Shown piece after piece: positions 1,375 to 30,025 of a stretch of 64,000 nt of DNA. The translations under genes and the position numbers were made by a program. The stretch is from an uncultured virus (IMG/VR IMGVR_UViG_3300021387_000812) (Duplodnaviria > Heunggongvirae > Uroviricota > Caudoviricetes): IMG/VR virus record IMGVR_UViG_3300021387_000812. One strand, 5' to 3'. The notes beneath the pieces are model-generated. The model saw only the letters and a program-made list of their open reading frames with translations, was not told the origin of the DNA and ran no database searches. Numbering within the stretch: the stretch's first letter is position 1; every line of letters starts with the position of its first letter.

Positions 1375-1563
1375 ATGTATAACGTATGCTTCGTTCTGTC
1401 AGACGGCAACAAGGGCATCACCATGTATGGTGGTGCTCCTGCTGTTTTCATAACCCAGGAGAGTGCCTGGGAGTTTGTTAACCAAACAATGTCCATGACG
1501 GACCACCCTGCATTGATGTGGGTGCGGAAGGTGGTGACTCCGGATGCCGACATGGCAACCTGA
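1375..1563 (+). CDS. Hypothetical protein
   Basis: GGAGG RBS; abuts previous stop. Confidence 0.6.
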   Translation: MYNVCFVLSDGNKGITMYGGAPAVFITQESAWEFVNQTMSMTDHPALMWVRKVVTPDADMAT

Positions 1564-1726
1564 TCCGGACACGATGCCCGTGAGGGATGACTATCTGCCC
1601 AAGTATGTAAAGCAATATGACCGTGACTATTTTGGCTTAATCAATGATCTCCCTGACTACGAAGAAGAGGACGAAGAAGATCTCTACGCGGACTGGGACT
1701 GCGACATCGAGGAGGTGTTCGGGTAA
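1544..1726 (+). CDS. Acidic hypothetical protein
   Basis: Operon packing; TAATG overlap with next gene. Confidence 0.5.
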   Translation: MPTWQPDPDTMPVRDDYLPKYVKQYDRDYFGLINDLPDYEEEDEEDLYADWDCDIEEVFG

Positions 1727-2034
1727 TGGAACCCATCTCTCTGATCGTTGCCGCGATTCTGATGTTTGCTGCATTCTTTGCCGGCATTGCGCTGGCAAAC
1801 TGGTATAACGACAAGGCTCAGGCCGCGCTGAGAGAAGCGATCGAGCGGCAGTACCTGCGACTGAGGGCAGGAGCAGATGCGGATGATCCGTGTAAGCCTT
1901 ATGTGTTCACCCAGCAAAATGTAAAACCGGCTGACCCAATCCCAGGATATGGCCCCATCTCTCCGGAGTTCATGGATGAACTGCGGGCGACAGGCAAAGC
2001 CCGTACCCAATTCAACAAGAGCGAAGTCTCTTAA
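1726..2034 (+). CDS. Membrane-anchored hypothetical protein
   Basis: GGAGGTG RBS; N-terminal hydrophobic helix. Confidence 0.7.
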   Translation: MEPISLIVAAILMFAAFFAGIALANWYNDKAQAALREAIERQYLRLRAGADADDPCKPYVFTQQNVKPADPIPGYGPISPEFMDELRATGKARTQFNKSEVS

Positions 2035-2221
2035 AAATCTTCGCCTGGCGGCGAAGTAGAGACTGGTGAAAAAGATCTTAGGATCGGTCTCCAAAAACTC
2101 TATGACCGACATTGCTGTACTCCGGTCGGCTGTAACCCCACAAATCCGGAGCGTTGGCGTGGATGTGCGTTTACTACGTGTAAAACTATTATTAAAGAAT
2201 TAAATTTATGGAGGTATTACT

Positions 2222-2614
2222 ATGAAGATTACGTTTAAGGGTTTTGTTGGCAAGGATGCTACTCTGCGTACCGTGACCGTCGGTGACAGCCAGGTGGCGG
2301 TACTGGACATCTGGGTGGCCGAGAACATCCGTAGCCGCAGCACTGACAACCAGAAGACCCTGTGGCACAAGGTGACCATCTGGCGGAAGTACGCCGAGAC
2401 CATGGCCCAGTACCTGAAGAAGGGCCGCCGCATTGAGGTGGACGGCATGGCGGAAGCCAAGGCTTACACCACCAGTGACGGGCGCATCGTCCCGTATATC
2501 AACGTGCAGGATGCCAGGATTGAGTTCCTGGACAGGCCGCAGGAGCCTGCTGCACCCGAAGTTCCTGCCGAAGAGGAAGACCCGATGCCTGAGGGAAATC
2601 CCTTCGAGGACTAA
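2222..2614 (+). CDS. ssb: Single-stranded DNA-binding protein 1
   Basis: OB-fold motifs (G.VGKDA, W.KVTIW, YLKKG..I.VDG); acidic tail ending NPFED. Confidence 0.88.
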   Translation: MKITFKGFVGKDATLRTVTVGDSQVAVLDIWVAENIRSRSTDNQKTLWHKVTIWRKYAETMAQYLKKGRRIEVDGMAEAKAYTTSDGRIVPYINVQDARIEFLDRPQEPAAPEVPAEEEDPMPEGNPFED

Positions 2615-2623
2615 TGCAAGACT

Positions 2624-2659
2624 GGGTAGCTGACCGTATGGGTTAGCTACCCTTTTTTT
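2624..2659 (+). terminator. Intrinsic terminator
   Basis: GGGTAGCTGACC/GGTTAGCTACCC stem plus T7. Confidence 0.85.
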
Positions 2660-2703
2660 CGAGTGAAAAAATTACAGTATGAAAAAATTAGGGAGGGATC
2701 TAC

Positions 2704-3780
2704 TTGAAGCATGGACGTACCCCGCAGGAGCTGTGGACTGAACTTGCACGCCGCCGCACTGCGAAGCATGACTACCTGGTGAACACCGAACTGCTGACGA
2801 TGGATGCTGATGACGGCGGTGCGATGCTCACAATGATGGACCGGAACAACAATGTTGCCCAGATCCTGGGGATCAATGAGATTGCCCACAACCAGATCGG
2901 ACAGTCTCTTGGCATCCCTAGTCGCTACTACGACAAGATGCGGCATGAGAACCCGGCGCTGCTGGCTGAGAACGTGAATGCCTGGTTTAACACCGATCCA
3001 AAGAATCGTATGGTGCGGACCCTGGATGGAGTAGCTCGTGCGTTCTTGAGTGACAGCTACCGCCGCATCGACAATGAACAGATCGTTGAGACGGTCATGC
3101 CTATCATCGCTCAGATTGACGGTGCGGAGATCGCATCCTGTGAGGTGACTGACGAGCGACTGTATATCAAGGTTGTGAACCCGCGACTGGAACGTGAAGT
3201 CTCTGTAGGGGACGTTGTTCAGTCGGGCGTGATGATTACCAACTCCGAGGTTGGACTGGGCAGCATGACAATCCAGCCGCTGATCTATCGTCTGGTGTGC
3301 ACCAACGGTATGATTGTCCCGGATGCCAGGCTGCGCAAGTATCACGCCGGCCGCAGAGTGGAAGCCAACGAAGACTTTACAATCTACGCAGATGATACCC
3401 TTCTCGCCGATGATAAAGCCCTGATGCTGAAGGTGCGGGACACCGTTGCTTCTGTGGTGGATGAAGTCCGCTTCGGCAAGCTGGTGGACATGATGAAGGG
3501 TGCAAAAGAAGCAAAGATCACCAGCACCAACATCCCGCAGATGGTTGAACTCGCAGGACCTGACTTCGGCTACACGAAGAAGGAGGGTGAGGGAATCCTG
3601 GATTATCTGATCCGTGGTGGGGATCTGTCCCTGTACGGATTCGGTAACGCAGTGACTCGCTACGCCCAAGACGTGGACTCCTATGACAGGTCGACTGCGC
3701 TGGAGACAATCGGCTATCAGGTGATGACAATGCCTGCCCGTAAATGGAACCATCTGAACACAGTGGAAACTGTGGCCTAA
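2704..3780 (+). CDS. DUF932-like phage protein
   Basis: RAFLSDSY..IDN, NSEVG.GS, RLVCTNGM motifs. Confidence 0.8.
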   Translation: MKHGRTPQELWTELARRRTAKHDYLVNTELLTMDADDGGAMLTMMDRNNNVAQILGINEIAHNQIGQSLGIPSRYYDKMRHENPALLAENVNAWFNTDPKNRMVRTLDGVARAFLSDSYRRIDNEQIVETVMPIIAQIDGAEIASCEVTDERLYIKVVNPRLEREVSVGDVVQSGVMITNSEVGLGSMTIQPLIYRLVCTNGMIVPDARLRKYHAGRRVEANEDFTIYADDTLLADDKALMLKVRDTVASVVDEVRFGKLVDMMKGAKEAKITSTNIPQMVELAGPDFGYTKKEGEGILDYLIRGGDLSLYGFGNAVTRYAQDVDSYDRSTALETIGYQVMTMPARKWNHLNTVETVA

Positions 3781-3869
3781 TTAAGGTCATCGACCTTACG
3801 CTCGCAAATGACTGATAGCATTTTGTATAACGTTTGTAAGTTTTCGAATAAGAATCCACACTAATCCGT

Positions 3870-3902
3870 GTGGGACATTCGAAAATCAATGTAAAGGGGA
3901 GA
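3870..3902 (+). promoter_or_regulatory. Conserved phage promoter-like motif, copy 1
   Basis: GTGGGACATTCGAAAAT-N5-TAAAGGGGAGA; five intergenic copies in the window. Confidence 0.7.
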
Positions 3903-4189
3903 GACGGATTCTCGACCTGGGGCCGTAAAGGGAGCAATGTCTAAAGTAGTTGACGTAACTGGCGGGGTATGTCCCGTTGGGGCGAAACAGGCATCCCTTT
4001 ATGATGAGCGTGAGGTGTGGCTAACGGATGTCGCACTGCTCCCCCCTTACTTTACTTGTTAAAGTAAGGGGGCGAATGGCGCGGGGGGACACCGGATGTG
4101 CTGCCTTGCAGGTGCTAGCGCATGACAGATACAGTTATTCAAAGAACAAAGTAATCAAAATACCTATCTGAGTCCATAGCGCAGGAATC

Positions 4190-4750
4190 GCGGACGACTG
4201 TACGACTGACGAAGGGAGATGCTCTGGAAAATACTGTTTTATATATATAATATAGTATAAAGAACAGGACTGTGTTTAAAAAACCACAAAATAAAAGAAT
4301 TAAGTCAGATAAATACACAAAACAAAAAACACAGTCTGATTAAGAGACTGTGTTCTTTAAATGACTGTTTGTTGATTATAAGTCTGATATAAGAACTGTG
4401 ACTGGAAGAATGGGTGTAATTTAATAGAGTTAGTGGAAAGAATAGTGTGTTGGGAGAGTACGTAATAAGAATAGTTCTCAATAACAAAAAACAGTCATAA
4501 AAGACTATTAATTCTAAACAACAAAAAACACTCATAAAAACAGTCAGGTAAAAAAAATAGTTCTCCTCAACAAAAACAGTCAGAAGTATTTAAGTCATAA
4601 CCAAACACTAACACTTATAATCCCATTTAAACTCTTAAAGAATACGTATTAAGCAAAATACACCAAGTAACAACACAGAGTAATAAACATTAACGTCTTG
4701 AATAAACAGAGTCTTTTATTTTTATTGCGTAATGAAGATAAAAGACTGTA
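4190..4750. other. AT-rich non-coding region with iterated ACAGTC/GACTGT; candidate replication origin
   Basis: Nine ACAGTC/GACTGT copies in both orientations; imperfect direct repeat 4470-4497/4556-4582. Confidence 0.4.
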
Positions 4751-4820
4751 CCGAATACGAACAGCCACCAAAAAGATTAAAACCAGCCGCCGGGTAAATC
4801 CCAGCCGAAAGGAGAACGAG

Positions 4821-5240
4821 ATGCCTAACACACGCTCGGTTAAAGAAGCTCTAAAATGTTTGTCCGCCGCGAATCGGAACGAAGCCTGCGGTAACTGTGC
4901 ATACTTCAGGCCCTTTACAGACGATCCGGATACGGGTTGGTGCGACAAGCGACAGGTAGCCACCGATGCTCTCAGACTTATCGAACAGCACGATGCGCGA
5001 CTGCTCTCTCTCGAAGAACTCAAAACCTATACAGATCCTGTGTATCTCGAAGAAGATCCCTTCGTAGGCTTCGGCTCGTTCTTCTCGTGGGCTATGTGCA
5101 TCGTAGACAAAAATACTATGTACGCAACTATCCGGAACGGAGTTACACACAACTACGACACTAAGAAGTACGGTAAGACCTGGCGCTGCTGGACAGCTAA
5201 GCCAACCGCAAGTCAACAGCAAACGAAGTGGGAAGAGTGA
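4821..5240 (+). CDS. Hypothetical protein, paralog of cassette-array genes
   Basis: AAGGAG RBS; C-terminal YGKTWRCWTAKPT resembles YGELWRCWTERPT of 59430..59870. Confidence 0.75.
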   Translation: MPNTRSVKEALKCLSAANRNEACGNCAYFRPFTDDPDTGWCDKRQVATDALRLIEQHDARLLSLEELKTYTDPVYLEEDPFVGFGSFFSWAMCIVDKNTMYATIRNGVTHNYDTKKYGKTWRCWTAKPTASQQQTKWEE

Positions 5241-13819: not shown

Positions 13820-13891
13820 GCCGGATTGGCGCAATGGAAGCGCAGTTGATTTGTAATCATCAGGTTGCAGGTTCGAGTCCTGTATCCGGCT
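13820..13891 (+). tRNA. tRNA-Thr(TGT)
   Basis: Acceptor GCCGGAT/ATCCGGC, anticodon loop TTTGTAA, GGTTCGAGTCC. Confidence 0.9.
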
Positions 13892-17643: not shown

Positions 17644-18051
17644 ATGAATAACACAATTATTATTGGCAATGTTGTCCGGGATGCGGAGCTCAAGAACGTC
17701 AATGTCAACGGTACGCCTACTGCCCGCTGCCGCTTCTCTGTCGCGGTGAATGAAACCCGGAGCAACGGCGAAGCCATCGTGACCTACTTTGAAGTTTCGC
17801 TCTGGCGTGATCGTGCCAGCCGGCTGGCGCAGTATCTCAAGCGCGGCCGTCAGGTAGCCGTGACTGGTCACGTCCGTCTGAATCAGTACACCGATGCCAA
17901 TCATATCGTTCGCAGTTCTCTTCAGCTCCACAGCGCGGAAGTCACGCTCCTGGGCAAGAAGCCGCAGGAAGAAGCTCCTGCTCCTGCTGAAGAGATGGAA
18001 ACCGTATCTGCCGCCGAAGTCGAAGACGACGACGAGTTCCCGTTTGGTTAA
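17644..18051 (+). CDS. ssb: Single-stranded DNA-binding protein 2
   Basis: IIGNVVRDAELK, FSVAVN, YLKRG.QV.V.G; DDDEFPFG tail. Confidence 0.9.
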   Translation: MNNTIIIGNVVRDAELKNVNVNGTPTARCRFSVAVNETRSNGEAIVTYFEVSLWRDRASRLAQYLKRGRQVAVTGHVRLNQYTDANHIVRSSLQLHSAEVTLLGKKPQEEAPAPAEEMETVSAAEVEDDDEFPFG

Positions 18052-19134: not shown

Positions 19135-20499
19135 ATGTTTAGAGATTCTGTCACCCTTGAATCGTTCTGTTCAACAGAACTGGCAAGGAACCTGTATGAT
19201 GACACATTTAATAAAAGCGACAGCGTGTATACTCTGACCGCAATGGCATTGCTTTACCGGCGGTTCAGCAATTTCAAACTGTCATATGGTGATAACCCTG
19301 AAATCATTAACACTGACCCGAAAACATTCTCTCTGTATTTCCTGACAAAGTTTAGCATGGATGAGAGAGATGAATACTTTGAAAACCACGGTCTTGCCGA
19401 CAAAATAAAAGCGCTTGACAGGCACAGCCAGTTTTTATCCAACACTATGCACAGCACTGTCAAGATTTATACCATCCCGGATACAAATACAGTGCTGGTT
19501 TATCGTGCCGGTGGGCTTTCAACACCTTATCGCCGGCTGGTAATCAGCTTGATCCACAGCATGTTTGAGTCCATCGCGAAGGCCGAGCCGCTGTCGCAGG
19601 ATGAGATCGAGTTCATGCGCACACTCACGGTCAACGATAAGTCCGCATTCATCGAGCGGATGACCCGCATCGCGAACCGACCCGACTTCAAAGATTTCAA
19701 GCTGCGGTTCACGCTCGCCGGATTCGAGCGGAAGATCTATGAAAAGAAGATCAAGGCCGCTGAAGCCGCAATTAAGAACGCGAAGATTAAAATGGATGAA
19801 GCTCTGGAAGAATATAGGCGGATGAACAACGAGCGCATGGACGCGATGCTCACGCTGGTCGGGCTCCAAGAGAGACACGATAGCATACAAGAAGTGACCG
19901 AAGTCCAGCAGTACATCGCCAGCAACAAACTGCTCAGTGATATTGAGATCGACGACCGCAAGGTTCACTTCAATGTCAAAACCTTCTTGGCGCCATATAA
20001 CTTTGATGAATGGGATACATCGGTCCGCCGCAGTGATACGCTGTTTACTTATCATGTCGGCCGTGGACCCGTCAAAACAATCGATGACGCGAAACTCCTG
20101 CTGTCTGCAATCTTCTCGGAGAACCACTGCCTTAAGGTGAAGATGTGTGCGCACTTTGATATGGACTTCTTTGGTGCGGCTGTTGAAACAGTTGCCGCCT
20201 ATCCGTTTAATAAAATGCCAGGATATGAAGTCTACATTCCGAATCCGCATCTCCAGTATTACAGATGTTTCGGAGAGAACCAGCTGGATATCCTGAATGC
20301 CCTGGGTGAAACCGATATGATCAGCGCGATTGAAGCCTGCATCAATGTTGCCCGGCGAATCTGTATCTTCGATCCCAGCTACAGACATTTTGTTTACGAT
20401 CTGTATGGAAATGAAAACAAATGCATCGTCGCAGAAGATGGAACTGAAATGACGGTTGCAGAAGCTCTGACCTACCTGAAGGAGAAGAAGAATGGCTGA
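19135..20499 (+). CDS. Coiled-coil protein with putative E2-like C-terminal domain
   Basis: PNPHLQYYRCFG resembles the E2 (H)PH....C.G active-site pattern; operon context. Confidence 0.5.
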   Translation: MFRDSVTLESFCSTELARNLYDDTFNKSDSVYTLTAMALLYRRFSNFKLSYGDNPEIINTDPKTFSLYFLTKFSMDERDEYFENHGLADKIKALDRHSQFLSNTMHSTVKIYTIPDTNTVLVYRAGGLSTPYRRLVISLIHSMFESIAKAEPLSQDEIEFMRTLTVNDKSAFIERMTRIANRPDFKDFKLRFTLAGFERKIYEKKIKAAEAAIKNAKIKMDEALEEYRRMNNERMDAMLTLVGLQERHDSIQEVTEVQQYIASNKLLSDIEIDDRKVHFNVKTFLAPYNFDEWDTSVRRSDTLFTYHVGRGPVKTIDDAKLLLSAIFSENHCLKVKMCAHFDMDFFGAAVETVAAYPFNKMPGYEVYIPNPHLQYYRCFGENQLDILNALGETDMISAIEACINVARRICIFDPSYRHFVYDLYGNENKCIVAEDGTEMTVAEALTYLKEKKNG

Positions 20500-21091
20500 A
20501 ATGACTGAAAAGGACGTGAAGAACATCATAGACTGGTGGGCCAGCCGCAAAAAAGCAGATAAACCTGTAAAGATCTATTACACAGCGGATGCCTACATTA
20601 AAACCAACGCTCTGGTCCAGTATCACAATGAAGAAGTGGGCTGGAACATGATCATCAAACCATATAAGGATGGCTATCAGGTTTCAGATATCCTTGTGTA
20701 TCCGCAGAAGGTAAGCCCGGCGTATATATCAGTCGACACAGCGAAGTATGGAATGTGGAAAGCTGAATTAACAGATGAGCAGGACGCGAATCTCTTTGGT
20801 CACGGTCATTCGCATGTGAACATGTCGACCGGAGCCAGCGCTGTGGATGTACGTCAGCAGTACGAAGAGATCGCACTGAAGCACGGCGGGTTCTGGCTGT
20901 TCCAGATTTGGAATAAGCAGGGGAGTATAAACTCCTTCTTTTATGACCTGGAGAATGATCTGGTATATGAAGATGACTTTGTTGAAGTGTGCGTAGAAGT
21001 AAACGGAGAAGACCTGATGGAGTTTGCGCAGGATTCGTTTAATAAACTGGATTACGATATGAGCGATGTACAGACTGGAGTGATTGAATGA
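20492..21091 (+). CDS. JAB/JAMM metallopeptidase
   Basis: EVGW and HSHVNMSTGASAVD (HxH-x7-S-x2-D). Confidence 0.85.
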   Translation: MAEMTEKDVKNIIDWWASRKKADKPVKIYYTADAYIKTNALVQYHNEEVGWNMIIKPYKDGYQVSDILVYPQKVSPAYISVDTAKYGMWKAELTDEQDANLFGHGHSHVNMSTGASAVDVRQQYEEIALKHGGFWLFQIWNKQGSINSFFYDLENDLVYEDDFVEVCVEVNGEDLMEFAQDSFNKLDYDMSDVQTGVIE

Positions 21092-21762
21092 ATCTGTCAA
21101 AATCTTTCGAGTTTTTTGACCCGGAAATGTGCAAAGGCCGGGTGCATATCATCGGCTGCGGCTCGGTGGGTTCCACCGTAGCGGAGCTGCTTGCGAGATT
21201 CGGTATCAAGAAGTTTGCGCTTTACGATTTCGACGTTGTAGAGTCGCATAACCTGGTTAACCAGATGTTCACTCAAATGGATATCGGCCGGCCGAAGGTA
21301 GAAGCTGTGCGGGATATGATCCAGGCGATCAACCCCGAAGCCAACATCAAACTCTATCCTGAAGGCTGGAAGGATCAGGAGCTGGATGGCTATGTCTTCC
21401 TGGGCGTGGATAACATCGAACTCCGCCGCAAGATCGCTACAAAGAACCGCTTCAACGATGCGGTCAAAGCAATGTTCGATTTCCGAACCGGCCTGACCGA
21501 TGCCCAGCATTACGCTACGGACTGGAAAGATGTCAAATCCAAAGCCAACTTCATCAACACTATGAATTTCAGTCACGAAGATGCGATGGTGACCACCAGG
21601 ATGTCCGCCTGCAACGTATCTCTTTGTGTAGCGCCGACGGTGCGGCTGGTAGCGAACGTTGGAGTCACAAACTTTATCAATTTCCTGAAGGGAGAACACC
21701 TGTACAAGCAGATCTCTATGGATGCGTTCAATTTTGAGAAGGGAATCGACGCCATAGGATAA
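21088..21762 (+). CDS. ThiF/E1-like adenylyltransferase
   Basis: IIGCGSVGS, DFDVVESHNLVNQ, G.PKVEA; candidate catalytic Cys in SACN. Confidence 0.9.
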   Translation: MNLSKSFEFFDPEMCKGRVHIIGCGSVGSTVAELLARFGIKKFALYDFDVVESHNLVNQMFTQMDIGRPKVEAVRDMIQAINPEANIKLYPEGWKDQELDGYVFLGVDNIELRRKIATKNRFNDAVKAMFDFRTGLTDAQHYATDWKDVKSKANFINTMNFSHEDAMVTTRMSACNVSLCVAPTVRLVANVGVTNFINFLKGEHLYKQISMDAFNFEKGIDAIG

Positions 21763-21871
21763 TCCAATTGCAATGTATAAGAACTTGTGTTCACTACCGA
21801 TGTAATCGATAGATACTTTCCGAAAAGATAAGACAATTAGAACTTAAAACTTTGTTTTAGATTGCAATGGA
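21763..21871 (+). ncRNA. Retron-like ncRNA A (short)
   Basis: Closing arms TCCA(A)TTGCAAT/ATTGCAATGGA, unpaired G21775, two 5' hairpins, 3' hairpin plus AG. Confidence 0.6.
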
Positions 21872-21880
21872 GAATAAATA

Positions 21881-23023
21881 ATGATATATGTAACAACACG
21901 CAGGTTCAAAAAGAAGAAGAAGATTAACTGGCTGGACCTGATCTCCGAACCAGAACCGCCAGTGAACGAGCTGGCAAGTGATGGTTCAGCGGCAACTATC
22001 ACCCGCCGCTACGAAGAAGTGCCGGCTGAGCTGTTGGATAAAATCGATGTCCCGAAGATGATCAGCATTCTCAAGAATTACAATCAGCGGCATCAGAATC
22101 TCCACGACCGTGACAAGCGTTCCATGTATAAACATTACAGCATCCCGAAGAAGAGCGGCACAGGTCTCCGCCCGATCGACGAGCCCTGCGATGAGCTTCA
22201 GGATGCGCTGCTGGAGCTTAAGAATATCCTGGCAGATAAGTTCGGAGTGCTCCATCACACCAGCGGCTTCGCTTATGTGACTGATCGCTGCACGCTTGAT
22301 GCGGTAAAGAAGCATCAGGCGGGCGAGTGCAACTGGTTTTATCACACCGACGCGTCCGGATTCTTTCCGTCTACCACACTCAAGTTCACGATGAAAATGG
22401 TGAAGATGATCTTCCCACTGAGTGAAATCTGTAAGAGCGATGAAGGCTACAACGAGCTAAAGAAGGCGCTGAGCCTGGGCTTCCTGAACGGTGGCCTGCC
22501 GCAGGGCACAAAATTATCGCCTTACTTAACCAATGTGATTATGATCCCGATTGACTTCAAACTGTTTAACGATCTGGCACACAGAAGGTTTATTTATACA
22601 CGTTATGCAGATGATATGCATATTTCATGCAAACAATACTTCAAAGAAGAACGCATGACTGCTTATATTCAGAACGTCTTTAAGCAGTTCGACGCGCCCT
22701 GGGAACTCAAGCAGGAGAAGACGCACTACGGTTCCCGCAAAGGCAAAAACTATATCCTGGGCGTCTGCCTGAATGCGGATAACAATATCACTGTGGGCTG
22801 GCGCAACAAGAAGCTTTTTAAAGCAAAGACAACAAATCTGATTATGGACTTCCGTAACGGAAATCCCTGGTCCAGAGAAGATCTCATGGAGTACGCCGGA
22901 CTTCTGTCGTACTATAAGATGGTCGAAAAAGAATACTTCGAGAAGAATATTATCCAGCACTTTAACAATAAGTTTAAAGTAGATCTGGAATGGTTGGTAA
23001 AACGTCTCCTTAGTCGCAAATAA
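21881..23023 (+). CDS. Retron-type reverse transcriptase
   Basis: IPKKSG..RPI, DAVKKH (NAxxH-like region X), D..GFFPS, LPQG..LSP, YTRYADD, ILG (VTG-like region Y); no maturase or HNH domain. Confidence 0.88.
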   Translation: MIYVTTRRFKKKKKINWLDLISEPEPPVNELASDGSAATITRRYEEVPAELLDKIDVPKMISILKNYNQRHQNLHDRDKRSMYKHYSIPKKSGTGLRPIDEPCDELQDALLELKNILADKFGVLHHTSGFAYVTDRCTLDAVKKHQAGECNWFYHTDASGFFPSTTLKFTMKMVKMIFPLSEICKSDEGYNELKKALSLGFLNGGLPQGTKLSPYLTNVIMIPIDFKLFNDLAHRRFIYTRYADDMHISCKQYFKEERMTAYIQNVFKQFDAPWELKQEKTHYGSRKGKNYILGVCLNADNNITVGWRNKKLFKAKTTNLIMDFRNGNPWSREDLMEYAGLLSYYKMVEKEYFEKNIIQHFNNKFKVDLEWLVKRLLSRK

Positions 23024-23215
23024 TATCCACAATGAATAGCATTTAATCAATGCTCTATGCATGTCATGCGTAGGATAACATTAAATGGATGGGAGCAACA
23101 CCTGGATCTGCAGAGCAGTAGACTTCAGGAAAAGCTTGCACCATTTCCTGAAGTCTACTGCTCTGCAGATCCAGGTGTATGCAGATTTAAATACTTCGTA
23201 TTGAGATTGTGGATA
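23024..23215 (+). ncRNA. Retron-like ncRNA B (msr/msd with 35-bp perfect hairpin)
   Basis: Arms TATCCACAAT/ATTGTGGATA, G23034, two msr-like hairpins, stem 23098-23132/23144-23178. Confidence 0.78.
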
Positions 23216-23231
23216 AAGTCGATTAAAAAAC

Positions 23232-23264
23232 GTGGGACATTCGAAAATATATATAATGGAGAGA
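23232..23264 (+). promoter_or_regulatory. Conserved promoter-like motif, copy 4
   Basis: GTGGGACATTCGAAAAT-atata-TAATGGAGAGA. Confidence 0.72.
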
Positions 23265-23282
23265 GAAGTATTCTTTTGTTGG

Positions 23283-23315
23283 TAACGCCATAGTCATTCT
23301 ATGGCGTTATTTTTT
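23283..23315 (+). terminator. Intrinsic terminator
   Basis: TAACGCCATAG/CTATGGCGTTA stem plus T6. Confidence 0.75.
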
Positions 23316-23429
23316 CGTTAACGCGGAAAGGAGATGAAGAGATTAGGTATGCGGCGCTGTTCTCGCGGGCCCGCTGATGACTGCCGAGTGTTTTTAGATC
23401 GCGAAGATGAAGATTTTTAAGGAGAACAT

Positions 23430-26264
23430 ATGGCTGGCAAATCGTATTTAAAGAATCAAATCAAACTGGTGTCTTTAAACGCGAACGATATGTTCACGCA
23501 GGATGAGTTCGATAAATATATGGAGCTCATCGGTTTTGTTAACGAGATCGACCGACTGAGCGGCGATAAAAGCCAGGATGCCGCGCTGAAAAAGGCGGAG
23601 CTGGTAGCCGCAAAAAAGAACTGCAGTAAAGAACTCAGTGCGATGATCAAATCGCACAAAGGCGTACCCAGGAAAGTACGCCTGCCGTCGGTGGTGTATC
23701 ACTCAAAGGATGAAGAGATGCCGCCGGGTGTAACATGGCGCAATCTTAAGCGCTCCAAGAAGATCGCAGAGTTTGAGTCGGATATGTCACGCGCCATGGG
23801 CGTGCAGACGAACAAACACACTTTCGATAAGATCATTATCAAGTGGAAAAATCTGGATCTGCTGGAGCAGCTCGTGCTGGATGGGTTCACGATGGACCTG
23901 CTGGTGGACGGGCAGATTGTGCAGAAGAAGTACAGATTCTTCTCAGCTTCCGCTGGTCAACTGCGCCGCGATAAGCTCCAGATGGTCTCGGAAGATATCT
24001 GGGAGAAGATCAAAGATCGTATTGAGTGCGGGTTGGGCTGGAAAGTAATCAACGAAAAAGGTGGAGCGAACGTAAACAAAATGCTCGCGTACCTTGCCTT
24101 GTGTGGCTCAGCAACAAACCCTTGGCCGGGATTTGATATCAGACGATGCATCGTGATACCCGACTGGGAAGGGGAAGTAACCGATCGGATGTTGTATATC
24201 AAGCCTGATTATACGACAGAAGACGGTGTCCGCACTGTAAAGATCAACCATGTGGATGGCGCCGGCATGTACCTGACGGACGCGGAGATCGTACCGGAAG
24301 ATCTTCGCGGCAAGAACTTCATGTTTCGTGGACCGTACTTCAAAGGGCTGTTGAGTCCTTTTGATGTAATTGCCTTTTGCAAGAAGCACGGTGTCGAACC
24401 TGAAATCGAAGACATGTGGCACATCAAACACAATCTTGTCAAGGAAAATATCCAGGTTCTCTTCACTAAAAGCCAATTCAAAATGATTGGCTTTTATTCG
24501 TCTTGGGAAGAATACCAGGACACCTTCGAACGCTGCGGCTGTCAGTTTGGTGTAACCCAGTTTGAAGAAGATGAGTTCCCGGATAAGAACTACAATTATC
24601 AGATGGGGCAGACCCTGACCGACTTCACGGATGAAGAGATCAAACAATACATAGCACACACGCATGACAGAATCCTGAATCTTGCAAGCAACAAGAACGA
24701 GATGCTGAATACTTTGAAAGCCAGAGAGAACTCATTTGCGGCTGATAAAGTAGCACTCGCTCTGTATCCTGAGCTTCTTCGTGATGGCTATAACAAGTCT
24801 CAGCTTAAAGACATCAAGAGAAGAATGCTGATGGACGCAAAATCCGGAGCGATCAAGTGCAAAAACAAGCGTCTCTTTGCGTTGCCGGATTGGTATGCTG
24901 CGTGTGAGTATTGGTTCCTTCACGTAGAACGGCCTTGCGGCCTGCTGAAGAACGGTGAAATCGCCTGCCGCCCATACTTGTCTCACGAGAAGGCAGACGT
25001 GCTCCGTTCTCCGCATCTCTATATGGAACATGCACTCCGCAAAATAGTGCATAACCCGGAGATATACAAATGGCTCTGCTCAGATGGTATCTACACATCG
25101 TGTCACGATCTGATCACAAGAATTTTGCAGTTCGATTGTGACGGAGACCAGTTAAATGTGGTCGTAGATCAAACCATATTAACCGTGGCAGAGCGAAACA
25201 TCAAAGAGTTTGATGTAATCCCACTATTTTACGATGCAAATAAAGCGAAGCCGGAGATAATCTCTCAGGCCGCAATGTTCCACGGTCTCAAGCGGGCTCA
25301 TGAGTTCTCCAACATTGGAGAGATCAGCAACATGCTCACCCGTTTGTGGAACAGAGATAATCCAGACAGACTGGCGGCAGCCTTCCTATGCTACAAAAAT
25401 AATTTGATTATTGATGCAGCGAAAACGGGATACATCAACGACTATACCAACTATCCGGATGTGGAGAAGCGGATCAACAAAGCTACAGGCGGACCTAATG
25501 GCCGCATGCCCTTCTTCTTCCAGTTTAGCCGCAACGGACGTAAGGAGATTGCCAACGGCAAAAAGAAGAAGGTCTGGGCAAAGATTAACAACTCCACAAT
25601 GAATAGGATCTGTCAGGCATTTGACGATATCGGCAACATCAACATGAACTTCGCCGGTGTATCGCCATTTAACTGGCAGATGCTGATGAGCGCTCCGTGC
25701 TTTGATAAGCGGCCAGAGATCGTCTCAACCTTCTGTGAGATAGATAATAGCAAACTGTCACTCTCCATCGTGGAATCCGAAGAGAGCCCGACCGAGCGCG
25801 AACTGATGAAGAATAATGGCATTCTCGAAGAAGACATCATCTATACGCTTACGGAGAAGTACGGTAGTCTTGAAATCTGTTATCCGTATATCACAAAATA
25901 TCTGTTCTCAGGCGAAGGCGTGGGAAAAGCAACACATAAGCAAACCTTCTGGCGGGTGTTCGGCGATATCGCGCTGAAGAATCTGCGCGAGAACCTGAAG
26001 AACCATTACATCTGTGATAAGTGCGGCATGAAGATCCCGAACTGGGTGGATCTGGATCAGCACTTCTGCCCGAAGGATACTCAGGGATTCTATCAGTGCA
26101 TCGACTGCGGCAAGCTGTGCGAACGCATGAACTCCCGGCAGTGCAGGTGTATGGAGTGTCAGGTTCAGCACCGCAACGAGAACAAACGCAACAGTCGTCT
26201 CATGAAAAAACAAATCCAAAAGGAGAGTGGTGAAAAACGTACTTCATTCTTGCCATTAGTGTAG
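23430..26264 (+). CDS. YonO-like single-subunit RNA polymerase (double-psi barrel, RdRP-like)
   Basis: SAGQLR, DGAG, R.P.FKG, LRSPHL, catalytic DCDGD, IIDAAKTG; C-terminal Zn fingers. Confidence 0.85.
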   Translation: MAGKSYLKNQIKLVSLNANDMFTQDEFDKYMELIGFVNEIDRLSGDKSQDAALKKAELVAAKKNCSKELSAMIKSHKGVPRKVRLPSVVYHSKDEEMPPGVTWRNLKRSKKIAEFESDMSRAMGVQTNKHTFDKIIIKWKNLDLLEQLVLDGFTMDLLVDGQIVQKKYRFFSASAGQLRRDKLQMVSEDIWEKIKDRIECGLGWKVINEKGGANVNKMLAYLALCGSATNPWPGFDIRRCIVIPDWEGEVTDRMLYIKPDYTTEDGVRTVKINHVDGAGMYLTDAEIVPEDLRGKNFMFRGPYFKGLLSPFDVIAFCKKHGVEPEIEDMWHIKHNLVKENIQVLFTKSQFKMIGFYSSWEEYQDTFERCGCQFGVTQFEEDEFPDKNYNYQMGQTLTDFTDEEIKQYIAHTHDRILNLASNKNEMLNTLKARENSFAADKVALALYPELLRDGYNKSQLKDIKRRMLMDAKSGAIKCKNKRLFALPDWYAACEYWFLHVERPCGLLKNGEIACRPYLSHEKADVLRSPHLYMEHALRKIVHNPEIYKWLCSDGIYTSCHDLITRILQFDCDGDQLNVVVDQTILTVAERNIKEFDVIPLFYDANKAKPEIISQAAMFHGLKRAHEFSNIGEISNMLTRLWNRDNPDRLAAAFLCYKNNLIIDAAKTGYINDYTNYPDVEKRINKATGGPNGRMPFFFQFSRNGRKEIANGKKKKVWAKINNSTMNRICQAFDDIGNINMNFAGVSPFNWQMLMSAPCFDKRPEIVSTFCEIDNSKLSLSIVESEESPTERELMKNNGILEEDIIYTLTEKYGSLEICYPYITKYLFSGEGVGKATHKQTFWRVFGDIALKNLRENLKNHYICDKCGMKIPNWVDLDQHFCPKDTQGFYQCIDCGKLCERMNSRQCRCMECQVQHRNENKRNSRLMKKQIQKESGEKRTSFLPLV

Positions 26265-26302
26265 ACAAGGACGTCGTAAACGGTTCGTTCTGGCCGTCCT
26301 AT

Positions 26303-26752
26303 GTGCTCTGTAGGGCATTCACCACTTCCGAGAAGCGGTCCGGCTACCGGATAATCAAAATGTTTGAAGGGATGCCGGCCCGCAACATCCCAAGAGTGCT
26401 GTTCACAGAGACAATCGGGCACGAAGACATGATCGACTTCATGTCTTCTTATCAGTGCCAGGATAAGAAGGGTAAACACTATCACCCGCATGGGTATCTG
26501 TGCTGGTATGAATGCAACAGATACGGCGAACCCAACGGTAAAGTCATACCCATTAAAAAAGTACCAGAGTTTGTATGGATCTATGACTTTGCGAATAAAG
26601 GTTATCAAAAACTCAAAAAAGATCGTGAGAAGGTGATGAAACTGAATGAAGTGATTGCAGGTGAACCAAGGGCATCTCCCTTGGAACCATCGGACAGGAA
26701 GATCAAACTCACACAACAGCTGCACAAACAGAGATCAGGAAAGGGTGATTAA
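26303..26752 (+). CDS. Hypothetical protein
   Basis: ORF fills the gap; start uncertain. Confidence 0.55.
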   Translation: MLCRAFTTSEKRSGYRIIKMFEGMPARNIPRVLFTETIGHEDMIDFMSSYQCQDKKGKHYHPHGYLCWYECNRYGEPNGKVIPIKKVPEFVWIYDFANKGYQKLKKDREKVMKLNEVIAGEPRASPLEPSDRKIKLTQQLHKQRSGKGD

Positions 26753-26753
26753 A

Positions 26754-27545
26754 TTGGCAGCTCCCAAAAAGGAAATGAGCGATCAGCTCGCAAAGAACGT
26801 CCGGTTCTATAACCGGGTCATGGAAGTTCCGGAAGAAGCGCAGAAGGAGTTCAACAACGGCCGCTTCTCCGGCACGGATATCAATCCGATGTGGAGAATC
26901 AAGATGCTCACGGAGCTCTTCGGCCCGGCTGGCTTCGGATGGTGGACGCAGAACGTTCGTTACGATTTTGTGGATTGTCCGGAAACGAAGGAGATCCATG
27001 TCTTCTGTGAACTGGAGCTGATCGTCAAAGACCCGGAGACCGGAGAAGCCAGCCAGCCAATCTATGGTGTTGGCGGCAATACCTATCTTACACAGGGCAA
27101 GTATGGCGCCCGTGCGTCGGATGAAGCCAAGAAGATGGCTTATACCGATGCGGTGTCCATCGCCTGTAAGTCTCTCGGCTTCGGCCACAATGTCTGGTTC
27201 TCCAAGGATCAGACCAAGTATACCATCAACGATGTAAACAGCAGTGCTCCAGCGCCAAAATCCGCGCCGAAGGCTGCGGCTAAGGTTGAAACCCAGCCGA
27301 AGGTCCCGGCGAGCTCTGAGCCGGAAAACCATAAGGAAGAACCAGAAGCCAAACACACACCGGATACCGCCACTGTTATCAGTGAGATCGATGCGCGGCT
27401 GAAGGTACTCGGCTCAGATATGAGCCGCGAAGAGAAGAAGGAGTTCGCCCAGAAGGTGATCTACCCGACGCTCGGCACAATGAACTACAAGTCCTGTACG
27501 GACATCACCAAACTTATTGAACTGCGGGATAAACTCCCTGCTTAA
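26754..27545 (+). CDS. Rad52/Sak-like single-strand annealing protein
   Basis: L.ELFGP.GFGW and EA.K.A.TDA...A...LG.G motifs; adjacent to ssb. Confidence 0.75.
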   Translation: MAAPKKEMSDQLAKNVRFYNRVMEVPEEAQKEFNNGRFSGTDINPMWRIKMLTELFGPAGFGWWTQNVRYDFVDCPETKEIHVFCELELIVKDPETGEASQPIYGVGGNTYLTQGKYGARASDEAKKMAYTDAVSIACKSLGFGHNVWFSKDQTKYTINDVNSSAPAPKSAPKAAAKVETQPKVPASSEPENHKEEPEAKHTPDTATVISEIDARLKVLGSDMSREEKKEFAQKVIYPTLGTMNYKSCTDITKLIELRDKLPA

Positions 27546-27564
27546 TTAAAGGAGAATTATTATT

Positions 27565-27951
27565 ATGGCTAACGATGCTCACATCAATTTTGTCGGAACC
27601 GTGCTTCAGGACCCCACCAACCGCCAGGTAAATGGCAACACCGTGCTCAGCCTTCGGGTCGCGGTGCAGACCACCAAGCGCCAGGAAGGATCTCAGTATC
27701 CCGCCAGCGACATCTACGACGTCTCCGTGTGGGGCAAGCAGGCTGAGAGCCTGATGGAACGCTGCAAGGCGAAGTCGAAGGTCTATGTCAATGGTGACTT
27801 CATGCTTGGCGAACCCTGGACGGATCGCCAGAACAAGGAACACCAAGTGCTGCGGGTGAACAACGCGCAGGTCAAGGTTCTCAGCGGTGGCTCTGCGAGC
27901 GCTCCTGCGAACAATAACAGTAACGAAGAAGACGAAGAAGCTCCCTTCTAA
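27565..27951 (+). CDS. ssb: Single-stranded DNA-binding protein 3
   Basis: OB fold (VSVWGKQAE, KVYVNG, WTDRQ); EEAPF tail. Confidence 0.88.
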   Translation: MANDAHINFVGTVLQDPTNRQVNGNTVLSLRVAVQTTKRQEGSQYPASDIYDVSVWGKQAESLMERCKAKSKVYVNGDFMLGEPWTDRQNKEHQVLRVNNAQVKVLSGGSASAPANNNSNEEDEEAPF

Positions 27952-28152
27952 GATGACTCATGCTCAAGAATAATCCCTAAGATTGTTCTTCTCCGGATGT
28001 CATCAGGAGAGTCTCTTTGATAAGGTTGATACCCCAGCAGCTGGAGTCGGGGCACTCCAGCTGCTGGGGACATCTCCGCTTTAGCGGTCGTCGTAAACGA
28101 CGACCGGTAAAGCTACGATTAAAAACAAGTTTTAGATGACATCTTAGAAGGG
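27943..28152 (+). ncRNA. Retron-like ncRNA C (remote copy)
   Basis: Arms CCCTTCTAAGATG..TCAT/ATGA-CATCTTAGAAGGG, G27962, same AT-GTC-AT hairpin and 3' hairpin plus AG as A and B. Confidence 0.62.
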
Positions 28153-28153
28153 A

Positions 28154-30025
28154 TTGGTAAATAAAATGGACGGCATTGCAAACGCGGTAATCAAACTGGC
28201 TGATAATCACTTTGGCGAATATAAGATCCGGAATGGTCAGATCATTCCCACCTATTGTCCCATCTGTCACGGCGGCGAGAGCCATGACAAGGAAACCTTT
28301 GCCATTGGCATGTGGAATGGCTCCTACAACTGCAAACGCGGCAGCTGCCCTGGCACAATGGGCAACGGCGTGGGCCGTGAAGGCTCCTTCAAACAGCTCT
28401 GCAACTACTTTGGCGAAGCGGCTTTCGAGTTCTCTGCGCTGCCGCAGTCTATCCGTGCCGCAAAGAAGACCTATGTAAAACCTGATCCGGATAAGTTCAA
28501 GCCGCTGTCCGAAGAAGCGATGACCTATCTGGCGAGTCGCTGCATCTCCGAGCAGACCGTCAAGGATTTCAAGCTCATGTCGGATGACAAGGGCAACATC
28601 GTCTTCCCGTTCTATCGGGATGGCGAACTGGTGTTTGTCAAGTACCGCAAGAGCAAGAAGCACGTCAAGGGTGAAGGACCCAAGGAGTGGCAGGATTCCA
28701 ACACGGAGCCGATTCTCTTTGGTATGGATAACACTTCCTTTAACCGGCCGCTGGTGATCTGCGAAGGTGAGATCGATGCCCTGTCTCTGTATGAAGCGGG
28801 CGTGCACAATGTTGTCTCTGTGCCCTGTGGGTGCAACAATATGGAATGGATTCAGCTCTGCTGGGAGTATATCGAAAAGTTCAATGAGATCATTCTCTTC
28901 GGCGACAACGACGAGCCCGGTATGGAGATGGTCTCTACGCTGATGAAGCGGCTGGGTGAAGATCGGTGCATGGTTCCGAAGGATTATCCGGAGTTGGTTT
29001 ACAATGGTAAGGATTATAACCGGCAATGCAAGGATGCGAATGAAATCCTGCTGTGCTACGGCCCTGAAGGGCTGAAGGCGCTGGTGGATGCCTGTGAGCC
29101 TGCTCCGATCAAGGGCGTGCTGGATGTGTCCACGATTAACTACGTAGACCCGGCGTCCGTGCCGCGTATTATGACAAAGATTCCCGCGCTGGATCAGCTG
29201 ATTGGCGGCTTTGGCGAAGCGGGTATCACTATTCTATCAGGTAAGCGTGCAGAAGGTAAGTCCACGATCACGTCCACATTCCTGCTCCAGGCAATCCAGC
29301 AGAACTACTCCTGCTGTGTCTACTCCGGAGAGCTGTCCGCCAGCAAGTTCCTGGAATGGATCATGCTGCCGGCAACTGAAAGCAAGTACGTAACCTATGT
29401 CACAGATAAGCGCAGTGGTAAGAACATCTGCAAGGTCCCACTGGAAATCCAGGAGCGCATTCGCAAGTGGATGGCCGGCAAGCTGTATCTGTTTGACAAC
29501 GCCTGCGCGTTCGAAGAAGATCAGCAGACCGCAGTGATGAAGGCATTTGAAATGTGCGCACGTCGGTATGGTTGCAAGCTTTTCGTAATTGACAACCTAA
29601 TGAGTCTCCTGACTACCGCCGATGAAGAGAACAAGGCTCAGGCCAGGTTCATGGCAAAGGTCAAAGGCTTTGCCAACAAATATAAGGTGCACGTCATCGT
29701 TATAGCGCATCCGCGCAAGGAGAAGGCTGACAGCACGTTCAGCAACGATACTGTTTCAGGTAGTTCAGTGATAACTAACCTTGCAGATAACGTATTTTCC
29801 ATAGAACGCCCTAACATCCGCGTCACCAAGAACCGCGATTTCGGAGAGACTGGTTACATTCTTTGTGACTACGATCCTATCAACCGCCGCATTTATCAGA
29901 AGAATCTGGGCGACCGCACCGTCTATGGCTGGGATCACACCGGTATCAAGATTCCGGAAGACCAGGCTTGCGCACTGCCGCAGTTCCAGATTCAGCCCGG
30001 CGAGAGTTCAAAAACTCCGTTCTGA
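28154..30025 (+). CDS. Primase-helicase (T7 gp4/Twinkle-like)
   Basis: CPIC Zn finger, TOPRIM (ICEGEIDALS, DNDEPG, KDANE), SF4 helicase (GKRAEGKS, IDNL, IAHPRK, SGS). Confidence 0.92.
   Translation: MVNKMDGIANAVIKLADNHFGEYKIRNGQIIPTYCPICHGGESHDKETFAIGMWNGSYNCKRGSCPGTMGNGVGREGSFKQLCNYFGEAAFEFSALPQSIRAAKKTYVKPDPDKFKPLSEEAMTYLASRCISEQTVKDFKLMSDDKGNIVFPFYRDGELVFVKYRKSKKHVKGEGPKEWQDSNTEPILFGMDNTSFNRPLVICEGEIDALSLYEAGVHNVVSVPCGCNNMEWIQLCWEYIEKFNEIILFGDNDEPGMEMVSTLMKRLGEDRCMVPKDYPELVYNGKDYNRQCKDANEILLCYGPEGLKALVDACEPAPIKGVLDVSTINYVDPASVPRIMTKIPALDQLIGGFGEAGITILSGKRAEGKSTITSTFLLQAIQQNYSCCVYSGELSASKFLEWIMLPATESKYVTYVTDKRSGKNICKVPLEIQERIRKWMAGKLYLFDNACAFEEDQQTAVMKAFEMCARRYGCKLFVIDNLMSLLTTADEENKAQARFMAKVKGFANKYKVHVIVIAHPRKEKADSTFSNDTVSGSSVITNLADNVFSIERPNIRVTKNRDFGETGYILCDYDPINRRIYQKNLGDRTVYGWDHTGIKIPEDQACALPQFQIQPGESSKTPF

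Follow-up and report, generated by a model that had tools for sequence, protein, structure and literature searches.

A retron-like phage reverse transcriptase accompanied by three related intergenic elements that may serve as its templates

An uncultured virus of the Caudoviricetes (IMG/VR record IMGVR_UViG_3300021387_000812) encodes, in the 64,000-nucleotide stretch of DNA analysed here (the window), a retron-like reverse transcriptase (RT) that is accompanied by three related intergenic elements, A, B and C, which share one architecture while differing in their middle parts, or payloads. The observation of three related elements is confirmed: A, B and C are members of a single RNA-like family, which is linked to the RT through strand and position and supported by covarying hairpins and complementary ends, and the members of this family are very likely RT-associated RNAs. 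We put at roughly 0.55 the probability that RT and elements together form a multi-template system for reverse transcription, phage-borne and retron-like, in which one enzyme would probably make several different small DNAs. The evidence consists of the architecture and conservation of the RNAs, their link in strand and position to the RT, and the placement of the RT in a phylogenetic tree.

Retrons such as Ec86/Eco1, Ec83, Ec78/Eco7 and St85/Sen2 are bacterial defences that combine an RT, one non-coding RNA (ncRNA) with msr and msd parts and an effector, and that produce branched multicopy single-stranded DNA (msDNA) using a single template RNA per enzyme. The available portion of one published description lists as features of the retron ncRNA complementary ends, an unpaired G right after the 5' arm (a1), 5' hairpins and a template part that varies (PMC8632793). 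An earlier note on this DNA had reported three intergenic elements of one such architecture, and we find them located as claimed, with the closing stems between a1 and the 3' arm (a2), the unpaired G, an AG on the 3' side, hairpins 1 and 2 and middles that differ from element to element all present (Table 1). The middle of A is short and weakly folded, that of B is a perfect 35-bp stem with an 11-nt loop, and that of C contains two GC-rich stems. The hairpin-2 pattern CTNNNNATGTMATNNNNAG, which the same note had singled out as shared, occurs 3 times in the 64 kb against a mean of 0.09 in shuffled sequence, with at least 3 occurrences in none of 100 shuffles. As RNA, all three elements are predicted to fold into structures closed by a1/a2, with energies of -22.1 kcal/mol for A (z -2.7; 1 of 200 shuffles equally good), -99.9 kcal/mol for B (z -13.1) and -106.4 kcal/mol for C (z -11.1). 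A scan of the window at Rfam gathering scores returned a tRNA gene alone and no match on A, B or C, and a permissive scan of 21700-28250 gave nothing but sub-threshold matches to microRNA precursors, on the long hairpins.

To assess the family beyond the window, we used a covariance model, R1, which describes the 5' module and was built from 30 seed copies with A, B and C among them. On the window, with filters off, the model scores A at 37.3, B at 38.7 and C at 20.2 bits and everything else at no more than 13.2 bits; because the three elements are in the seed they are matched by construction, and the independent support comes from the relatives. Across 155 related loci the scan, which the earlier note had proposed, gave 41 + 71 = 112 matches at E<=0.5 (including 27 seeds drawn from those loci), and 112 of 112 lie on the strand of the RT. 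In the model-fitted alignment the bases of hairpin 2 pair in 91.3% of 688 cells, compared with 71.4% in shuffles and at most 59% in slid controls, and 141 cells carry double changes against 41 in shuffles, so that the covariation anticipated for homologs is found. Hairpin 1 has at least 5 pairs in 30 of 39 elements versus 23% of shuffled segments. The complementarity of a1 and a2 likewise extends across more than 100 copies. Among the 101 of 115 matches usable for this comparison (13 lack ATG at the expected place and 1 lies too close to the end of its locus), the 10 nt before the G find a partner downstream that pairs at 10 of 10 positions in 43 cases, at 9 of 10 in 33, at 8 of 10 in 24 and at 7 of 10 in 1, while swapping a1 between elements gave 10/10 pairs in 3.6% and 9/10 pairs in 30.7%. 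An AG stands directly before the best a2 match in 55 of 76, and the ATG at the G junction is invariant in the 30 seeds of R1.

The 51 distinct complete elements are 106-373 nt long (median 276) and occur dispersed or in pairs, with payloads of 48-274 nt across the family. In five close phages an element is near-identical over its initial ~76 nt and final ~25 nt, with a strongly divergent middle that carries insertions and deletions. Three positions recur: 300-480 nt upstream of the RT start; immediately 3' of the RT stop, where two copies often stand in tandem; and the gap between the genes for single-strand DNA-binding protein (SSB) and primase-helicase, where R1 matches in 7 of the 10 distinct related loci in which both genes are present. 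Each of two related records contains 5 copies, and in the one of these whose copies were checked against the RT coordinates (G406) all of them fall in a stretch of ~11.5 kb that surrounds the RT; an R1 genome search found no further copy elsewhere in its 112 kb, a result that is a lower bound. The same applies to all copy counts from R1 genome searches, because one copy seen by cmsearch (L072:8140) was missed. Look-alikes of the payloads are confined, in the window, to chance words of 9-16 nt and, in the related loci, to the same strain.

The family, a probable multi-template system of retron-like kind, is real and widespread. Relatives of the RT number 529 confirmed stretches in one viral collection (80 of the 529 were kept), 67 metagenome loci and 7 contigs of metagenome-assembled genomes (MAGs), and a large protein collection holds 4178 matching proteins at E<=1e-5, the best 120 of them at 50-98% identity. 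Among 50,697 deposited phage records a full-length relative of the RT is present in only one (MT835544.1, 39% identity). The MAG behind locus L153 (G002) contains two different members of the RT family on two contigs, L160 (E 8e-131) and L161 (E 1e-122), which are probably two phage contigs binned as one.

The RT itself, described in the earlier note as retron-type, is nearest to retrons by every profile. All of its 25 best PADLOC models are retron RTs (top RT_II-A, 5.4e-41, 139 bits), NCBIfam gives retron_St85_RT at 7.8e-45 versus Drt2 at 1.9e-10, and its closest solved relatives are the RTs of retrons Ec83 (1.2e-27) and Ec78 (7.5e-26), aligned over residues 73-374, compared with ~1e-11 for group II and 4.6e-4 for Drt2 enzymes. 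Relative to the solved retron RTs it carries an N-terminal extension of ~75 residues. The YADD active site is found in 38 of 38 aligned family members, and the N-A-x-x-H of retron Ec83, which we take to be a retron motif, lies opposite A-V-K-K-H of the phage enzyme. We placed 14 phage RTs in a tree with 15 of the 23 retron RTs found in 401 Bacteroidales genomes and 6 others (group II, UG17 and DRT2). The retron types in this tree are I-C, II-A, III-A, VII-A2, XI and XIII only, UG27 sequences are not among its members, L167, L172, L173, L175, L178, L179, L180 and L182 are omitted, and ten phage rows are framed from the start of the match, so that some N-termini are cut. The 14 phage RTs form one clade (support 100/100) that is sister to all 15 retron RTs (100/99), and phage and retron RTs together split from the group II, UG17 and DRT2 enzymes (100/98). 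The sequences thus indicate a retron-like lineage that is sister to the typed retrons sampled and outside them; the retron affinity of the earlier description holds, membership among the typed retrons sampled does not. A diversity-generating retroelement was considered as well and rejected: the window holds no template/variable repeat pair for the payloads, and the RT matches retron-type rather than diversity-generating models.

Several observations weigh against the multi-template reading, some concerning the enzyme and some the RNAs. With 153.4 bits on NCBIfam retron_St85_RT the enzyme stays below the cutoff of 235, and its best PADLOC score of 139 bits falls under the 140-300 bits that the 23 Bacteroidales retron RTs reach on models of other types than their own (290-717 bits on their own type). 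In motif 7 the sequence VTG, given as a retron signature in the available text of PMC8632793, aligns in Ec83, Ec78 and a third solved retron RT with ILG here; at this position 14 of 14 phage RTs have xLG and 15 of 15 retron RTs xTG. On the side of the RNAs, the hairpin-2 counts come from an alignment fitted by the model and are biased towards the structure, ATG is absent from its expected place in 13 of 115 model matches, and ATG and AG in the junction logo are partly imposed by the way the elements were selected. The msr/msd layout of retrons is supported in its two 5' hairpins, but the strongly folded payload seen in B and C recurs in only 13 of 39 elements (folding better than shuffles at z<-2), element A not among them, so a long msd-type hairpin is not general; an uninterrupted stem of at least 10 pairs is present in 28 of the 39 payloads. 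Finally, msDNA is a known product of retrons, whereas the phage system is known here from sequence and contigs, with no DNA product, RNA end or branch among them.

Were the system to work as a retron does, events could run as follows. The terminator-like hairpin 3' of B would close a transcript on which A, the RT gene and B lie together, and C would be carried on the SSB-primase transcript. The RT would bind the common 5' module of the three RNAs (hairpin 1 followed by hairpin 2, which has a GUN triloop), and the a1/a2 duplex would set the unpaired G beside the conserved ..U-A-G that precedes a2. From this junction, most likely on the 2'-OH of the G, the enzyme would start and copy the variable middle towards hairpin 2. 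Copying of the whole middle would give DNAs of up to ~48 nt from A, 132 nt from B and 126 nt from C, of which the latter two would be strong hairpins (predicted DNA folds of -47.8 kcal/mol, z -13.8, for B and -37.7 kcal/mol, z -10.0, for C, with -3.3 kcal/mol, z -0.7, for A). Judging from the sequences, the elements are likely copied into DNA; priming from the G, argued by analogy with retrons, is a possibility that we rate a little short of even. As to the use of the products, it is a guess that the phage uses them to counter host defence, by presenting DNA-binding defence proteins with decoys or sponges.

The likeness to retrons is thus considerable. Over its whole length, C-terminal region included, the RT is nearest in sequence to retron enzymes, and the RNAs have the complementary ends, the G after a1, the 5' hairpins and the variable template, with one copy directly upstream of the RT. 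The differences lie in the sister-clade position of the enzyme with its xLG and longer N-terminus, in the number of template candidates (3 here and up to 5 in related records, versus one), in a location within the replication module of ~150-kb phages rather than a bacterial defence locus, and in neighbours that are an E1, a JAB and an E2-like protein, with no known retron effector family matched on PADLOC. The arrangement had been thought undescribed in the earlier note, and in this respect the note needs correction, as a single phage RT using many template RNAs to make cDNA hairpins has been published for UG27 in two reports (PMC9226505; 10.64898/2026.09.22.753630). In the accessible text of the same reports, UG27 is a gut-phage RT of class 2 UG/Abi that shows YSDD in the five tested systems; it has as helpers two proteins without known domains, sORF and bORF; and its RNAs form tandem arrays of ~135-167-nt units that carry AUCN7UANAG and UUYA motifs and, in many cases, a pseudoknot (PMC9226505; 10.64898/2026.09.22.753630). 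The available text of the preprint adds that these arrays give rise to RT-dependent hairpin cDNAs of 50-100 nt that start at the AUC within AUCN7UANAG (10.64898/2026.09.22.753630). Both systems are phage-borne and combine one RT, several scaffold-sharing RNAs of differing sequence and conserved partner genes. They differ in that UG27 has a class 2 UG/Abi RT with YSDD versus the retron-like YADD enzyme here, two domainless helpers (compared by their description only) versus three conserved neighbours of which two are clearly JAB and E1, and tandem units with their own motifs versus dispersed elements of 106-373 nt with a1/a2 and the G junction.

The phage system therefore opens no new category, because the concept of one RT with many templates is already published for UG27, albeit with a different RT family, different helpers and a different RNA design. 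Searching the literature, we found no natural system of the retron clade with several ncRNAs, although the supplements of the UG27 papers, which were not fully covered, could bear on this family. Engineered retron arrays, as far as the accessible part of their description goes, pair one retron RT with several ncRNAs of different payload (10.1101/2023.07.17.549397); they are man-made, and the phage system would be their natural counterpart. If the multi-template reading is true, the retron lineage has a common phage-borne branch with several templates per enzyme, one that provides a natural model for multiplexed production of single-stranded DNA by a retron-like RT and whose natural boundaries between scaffold and payload could guide engineering.

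The comparison with UG27 also bears on the other ways in which the elements might be explained. That the phage simply belongs to the published UG27 family is hardly credible. Its RT, at 380 residues, does fall inside the 380-450 residues given for UG27, but the PADLOC model RT_UG27 (PDLC03765) is not among the 25 best for it; the L002 phage RT obtains 36.7 bits (E 9e-11) from the same model, which matches nothing in three other related records; the available text of the preprint sets a threshold of at least 120 bits on its own profiles (10.64898/2026.09.22.753630). Added to this are YADD in place of YSDD, helpers with recognisable JAB and E1 domains, and elements that are dispersed and variable in length rather than tandem units of ~150 nt. 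We reject UG27 identity on the profile score, the YADD site and the absence of the start motif from A, B and C. A separate matter is whether the RNAs, without such kinship, are copied in the UG27 style, that is, with an internal start motif from which only their inner part is turned into short free cDNAs that have no 2'-5' branch, and with the neighbouring proteins as helpers. In favour of this speak the phage-borne setting with several scaffold-conserved, sequence-diverse RNAs per RT and, in the portion of the preprint available, a requirement for both helpers (10.64898/2026.09.22.753630), to which the fixed multi-gene cassette around the RT here would correspond, as well as an enzyme that lacks the retron VTG signature. 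We consider it unlikely all the same: the enzymes are far from UG27, as judged by the relative's score of 36.7 bits, the start motif ATCN7TANAG occurs 0 times in A, B and C and 2 times elsewhere in the window against 7.3 expected, and the a1/a2-plus-G junction is of retron design.

The elements might also be RNAs that the RT binds and normally leaves uncopied, acting on the translation or stability of the flanking genes, or being copied on a trigger as in type VI retrons. The GGAG ribosome site of the RT gene overlaps the 3' end of a2 both in element A (21861-21883) and in the related locus L001 (7979-8003), and RNA folding could therefore gate translation of the RT; many payloads have no strong fold; and retrons without constitutive msDNA have been reported in the available text of 10.1101/2025.10.22.683967. 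Yet a role in regulation alone does not explain why a middle of 48-274 nt diverges fast inside a conserved scaffold, or why the G/AG junction is conserved, and we hold this explanation to be rather improbable. Poorer still are the prospects of the view that A, B and C work without the RT, as cis signals within the module for replication and transcription (an origin, a single-strand initiation hairpin, a terminator or a processing site, for instance). They do stand amid replication genes (RT, RNA polymerase, SSB, primase-helicase), with a terminator-like hairpin 3' of B, but in wholly scanned relatives no copy was found away from the RT region, the elements are present in RT-bearing loci even when the downstream replication genes differ, all 112 copies follow the strand of the RT, and the architecture agrees in every point with that of retron template RNAs.

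Table 1. Positions in the window of the elements, their parts and the surrounding features.
Feature	Coordinates	Strand	Remarks
GGGACATTCGARAAT copies	3872, 6249, 6760, 23234, 37946, 42838	+	15-nt motif
tRNA gene	13820-13891		Sole Rfam match above gathering score in the window
SSB, first of two	17644-18051		Pfam SSB, 1.2e-20
p454	19135-20499	+	454 aa; first cassette gene; long central helix
p199	20492-21091	+	199 aa; JAB/MPN (JAMM) metallopeptidase
ThiF/E1-like adenylyltransferase	21088-21762	+	Pfam ThiF, 4.9e-28
Element A	21764-21870	+	Template-RNA candidate; gap ThiF/RT, directly upstream of RT
A: a1; G; hairpin 1; hairpin 2	21764-21774; 21775; 21781-21792; 21794-21812	+	G unpaired
A: AG; a2	21859-21860; 21861-21870	+
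Reverse transcriptase	21881-23023	+	380 aa; YADD active site
Element B	23024-23215	+	Gap RT/RNA polymerase; first base is the base after the RT stop codon
B: a1; G; hairpin 1; hairpin 2	23024-23033; 23034; 23038-23054; 23055-23073	+	G unpaired
B: stem of the middle; a2	23098-23178; 23206-23215	+	Stem seen as self-match
Intrinsic-terminator-like hairpin	23281-23311	+	13-pair stem, then TTTTCGTT (T run); consensus match only
RNA polymerase, YonO/RdRP-like (candidate)	23430-26264	+	944 aa; PF05183 1.3e-6; phrog_8308 7e-167
Two more genes		+	Between RNA polymerase and second SSB
SSB, second	27565-27951	+	Pfam SSB, 2.7e-16
Element C	27943-28152	+	Gap SSB/primase-helicase; closing stem overlaps SSB stop codon
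C: closing stem	27943-27961 with 28136-28152	+	2-nt bulge
C: G; hairpin 1; hairpin 2	27962; 27967-27989; 27991-28009	+	G unpaired
C: GC-rich stems of the middle	28032-28069; 28078-28113	+
Primase-helicase	28166-30025	+

Upstream of the RT lies a cassette of p454, p199 and ThiF, which together with the RT keeps a fixed order on one strand in nearly every locus whose upstream sequence is long enough. Of 158 loci, 124 have ThiF upstream of the RT, 110 have p199 and 102 have p454; the ThiF homologues, at 49-68% identity, are directly upstream of the RT every time, and the downstream RNA polymerase is found in 27. The ThiF protein matches E1-E2 (Cap2-type) models on PADLOC (best 7.3e-22), and its NCBIfam matches are below cutoff throughout. 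In p199, residues E48, H106-S107-H108, S116 and D119 are invariant in 50 sequences, the AlphaFold2 (AF2) model has a predicted local distance difference test score (pLDDT) of 92.9 and Foldseek matches to CSN5 and Rpn11 (E 1.3e-7 to 1e-6), and 12 of 50 family members weakly match Prok-JAB (best E 0.0027). The third protein, p454, has no Pfam, PHROG or PADLOC match, and Foldseek with its whole AF2 model (pLDDT 89.1, predicted template modelling score 0.55) found none at E<=0.001. With VIA-align, residues 255-409 bear a weak likeness to the Knl1 RWD domain 4nf9_A (Z 6.9, root-mean-square deviation 3.1, 88 aligned), followed by a second match to 9gy4_F (Z 6.3), and residues H372, C378 and G380 are invariant in 49 sequences. 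RWD domains have a UBC (E2)-like fold, and the modelled segment is a possible E2/RWD-like domain, nothing firmer.

A comparable set of functions is known from type II cyclic-oligonucleotide-based antiphage signalling systems (CBASS), in which Cap2 and Cap3 form an E1/E2/JAB accessory module beside a CD-NTase. The phage cassette resembles it in the match of ThiF to Cap2-type E1-E2 models, in the adjoining JAB peptidase, in the adjacent nucleotide polymerase and in the possible E2/RWD-like domain with its invariant Cys in p454. Unlike in CBASS, two different proteins carry the E1 and the E2-like part, an RT stands in place of the CD-NTase as partner, and a conserved C-terminal Gly, the mark of an E1 substrate, is absent from all four cassette proteins. 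No ubiquitin-like protein was recognised beside the E2-like(?)/JAB/E1 trio at 19135-21762. Distant relatives of ThiF (at most 33% identity) occur in crAss-like (crAss001-like) and Xanthomonas (jumbo) phages, neither of which is among the tallied RT matches in the deposited phage records. Because of this, and because the conserved Gly is absent, the tie between RT and cassette is one of fixed adjacency only. A complex prediction for ThiF, p454 residues 255-454 and the RT scored 0.00, which is no answer and speaks neither for nor against an interaction. From the gene order, the cassette may regulate or modify the RT system. Our literature search found no retron-type RT linked to ThiF or JAB genes, and the link offers itself for testing. 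We regard as doubtful the full picture of a natural multiplexed retron, sister to all typed retrons, that uses one enzyme to make different small DNAs from several rapidly evolving payload RNAs, is wired to an E1/E2/JAB conjugation cassette switching the RT or its products, and supplies the DNAs as counter-defence decoys against DNA-sensing immunity.

The window is part of one large phage of gut or rumen type; two relatives, whose RTs share 66% and 50% identity with the RT described here, have complete genomes, 150,578 and 148,117 bp in length, that carry terminal repeats. All genes around the elements are on the + strand (Table 1). Two separate SSB genes stand in this single phage replication region. 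The sequence of the 944-residue protein marks it as a candidate YonO-like single-subunit RNA polymerase; its match to PF05183 (eukaryotic-type RdRP) is weak and that to phrog_8308 strong, and its C-terminus has Cys-rich repeats resembling zinc ribbons.

Some minor observations concern the elements and their surroundings. Restriction-site-like words occur in the stems of B and C, in a number similar to that expected by chance in any 35-bp stem. A sigma-70-like promoter at 21734-21763 is one among 9 matches where 8.9 are expected and is not evidence. Among 20 public runs, all represented by contigs, two from RNA libraries gave 5 short contigs covering coding parts of the region (25283-25529, 26610-26949, 27107-27296 and 27510-27761), none of them over A, B or C, which says nothing about expression or msDNA; contigs from public DNA runs are broken at the long hairpin of B. 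One Bacteroidales genome (L195) carries a DRT2-type RT with YSDD at 3565-5142 on the - strand (PADLOC Drt2, 9.7e-132), beyond which ~2 kb (1519-3565) contain no open reading frame of at least 120 residues. In the window the motif GGGACATTCGARAAT has 6 copies at no more than 2 mismatches, compared with 0.34 expected, all on the + strand; a similar word lies 3' of element B' in the related locus L001, and 38 nt around 23227-23264 recur on another contig in two DNA runs. This motif probably acts as a promoter specific to the phage, or as some other regulatory word, and perhaps the YonO-like RNA polymerase uses it.

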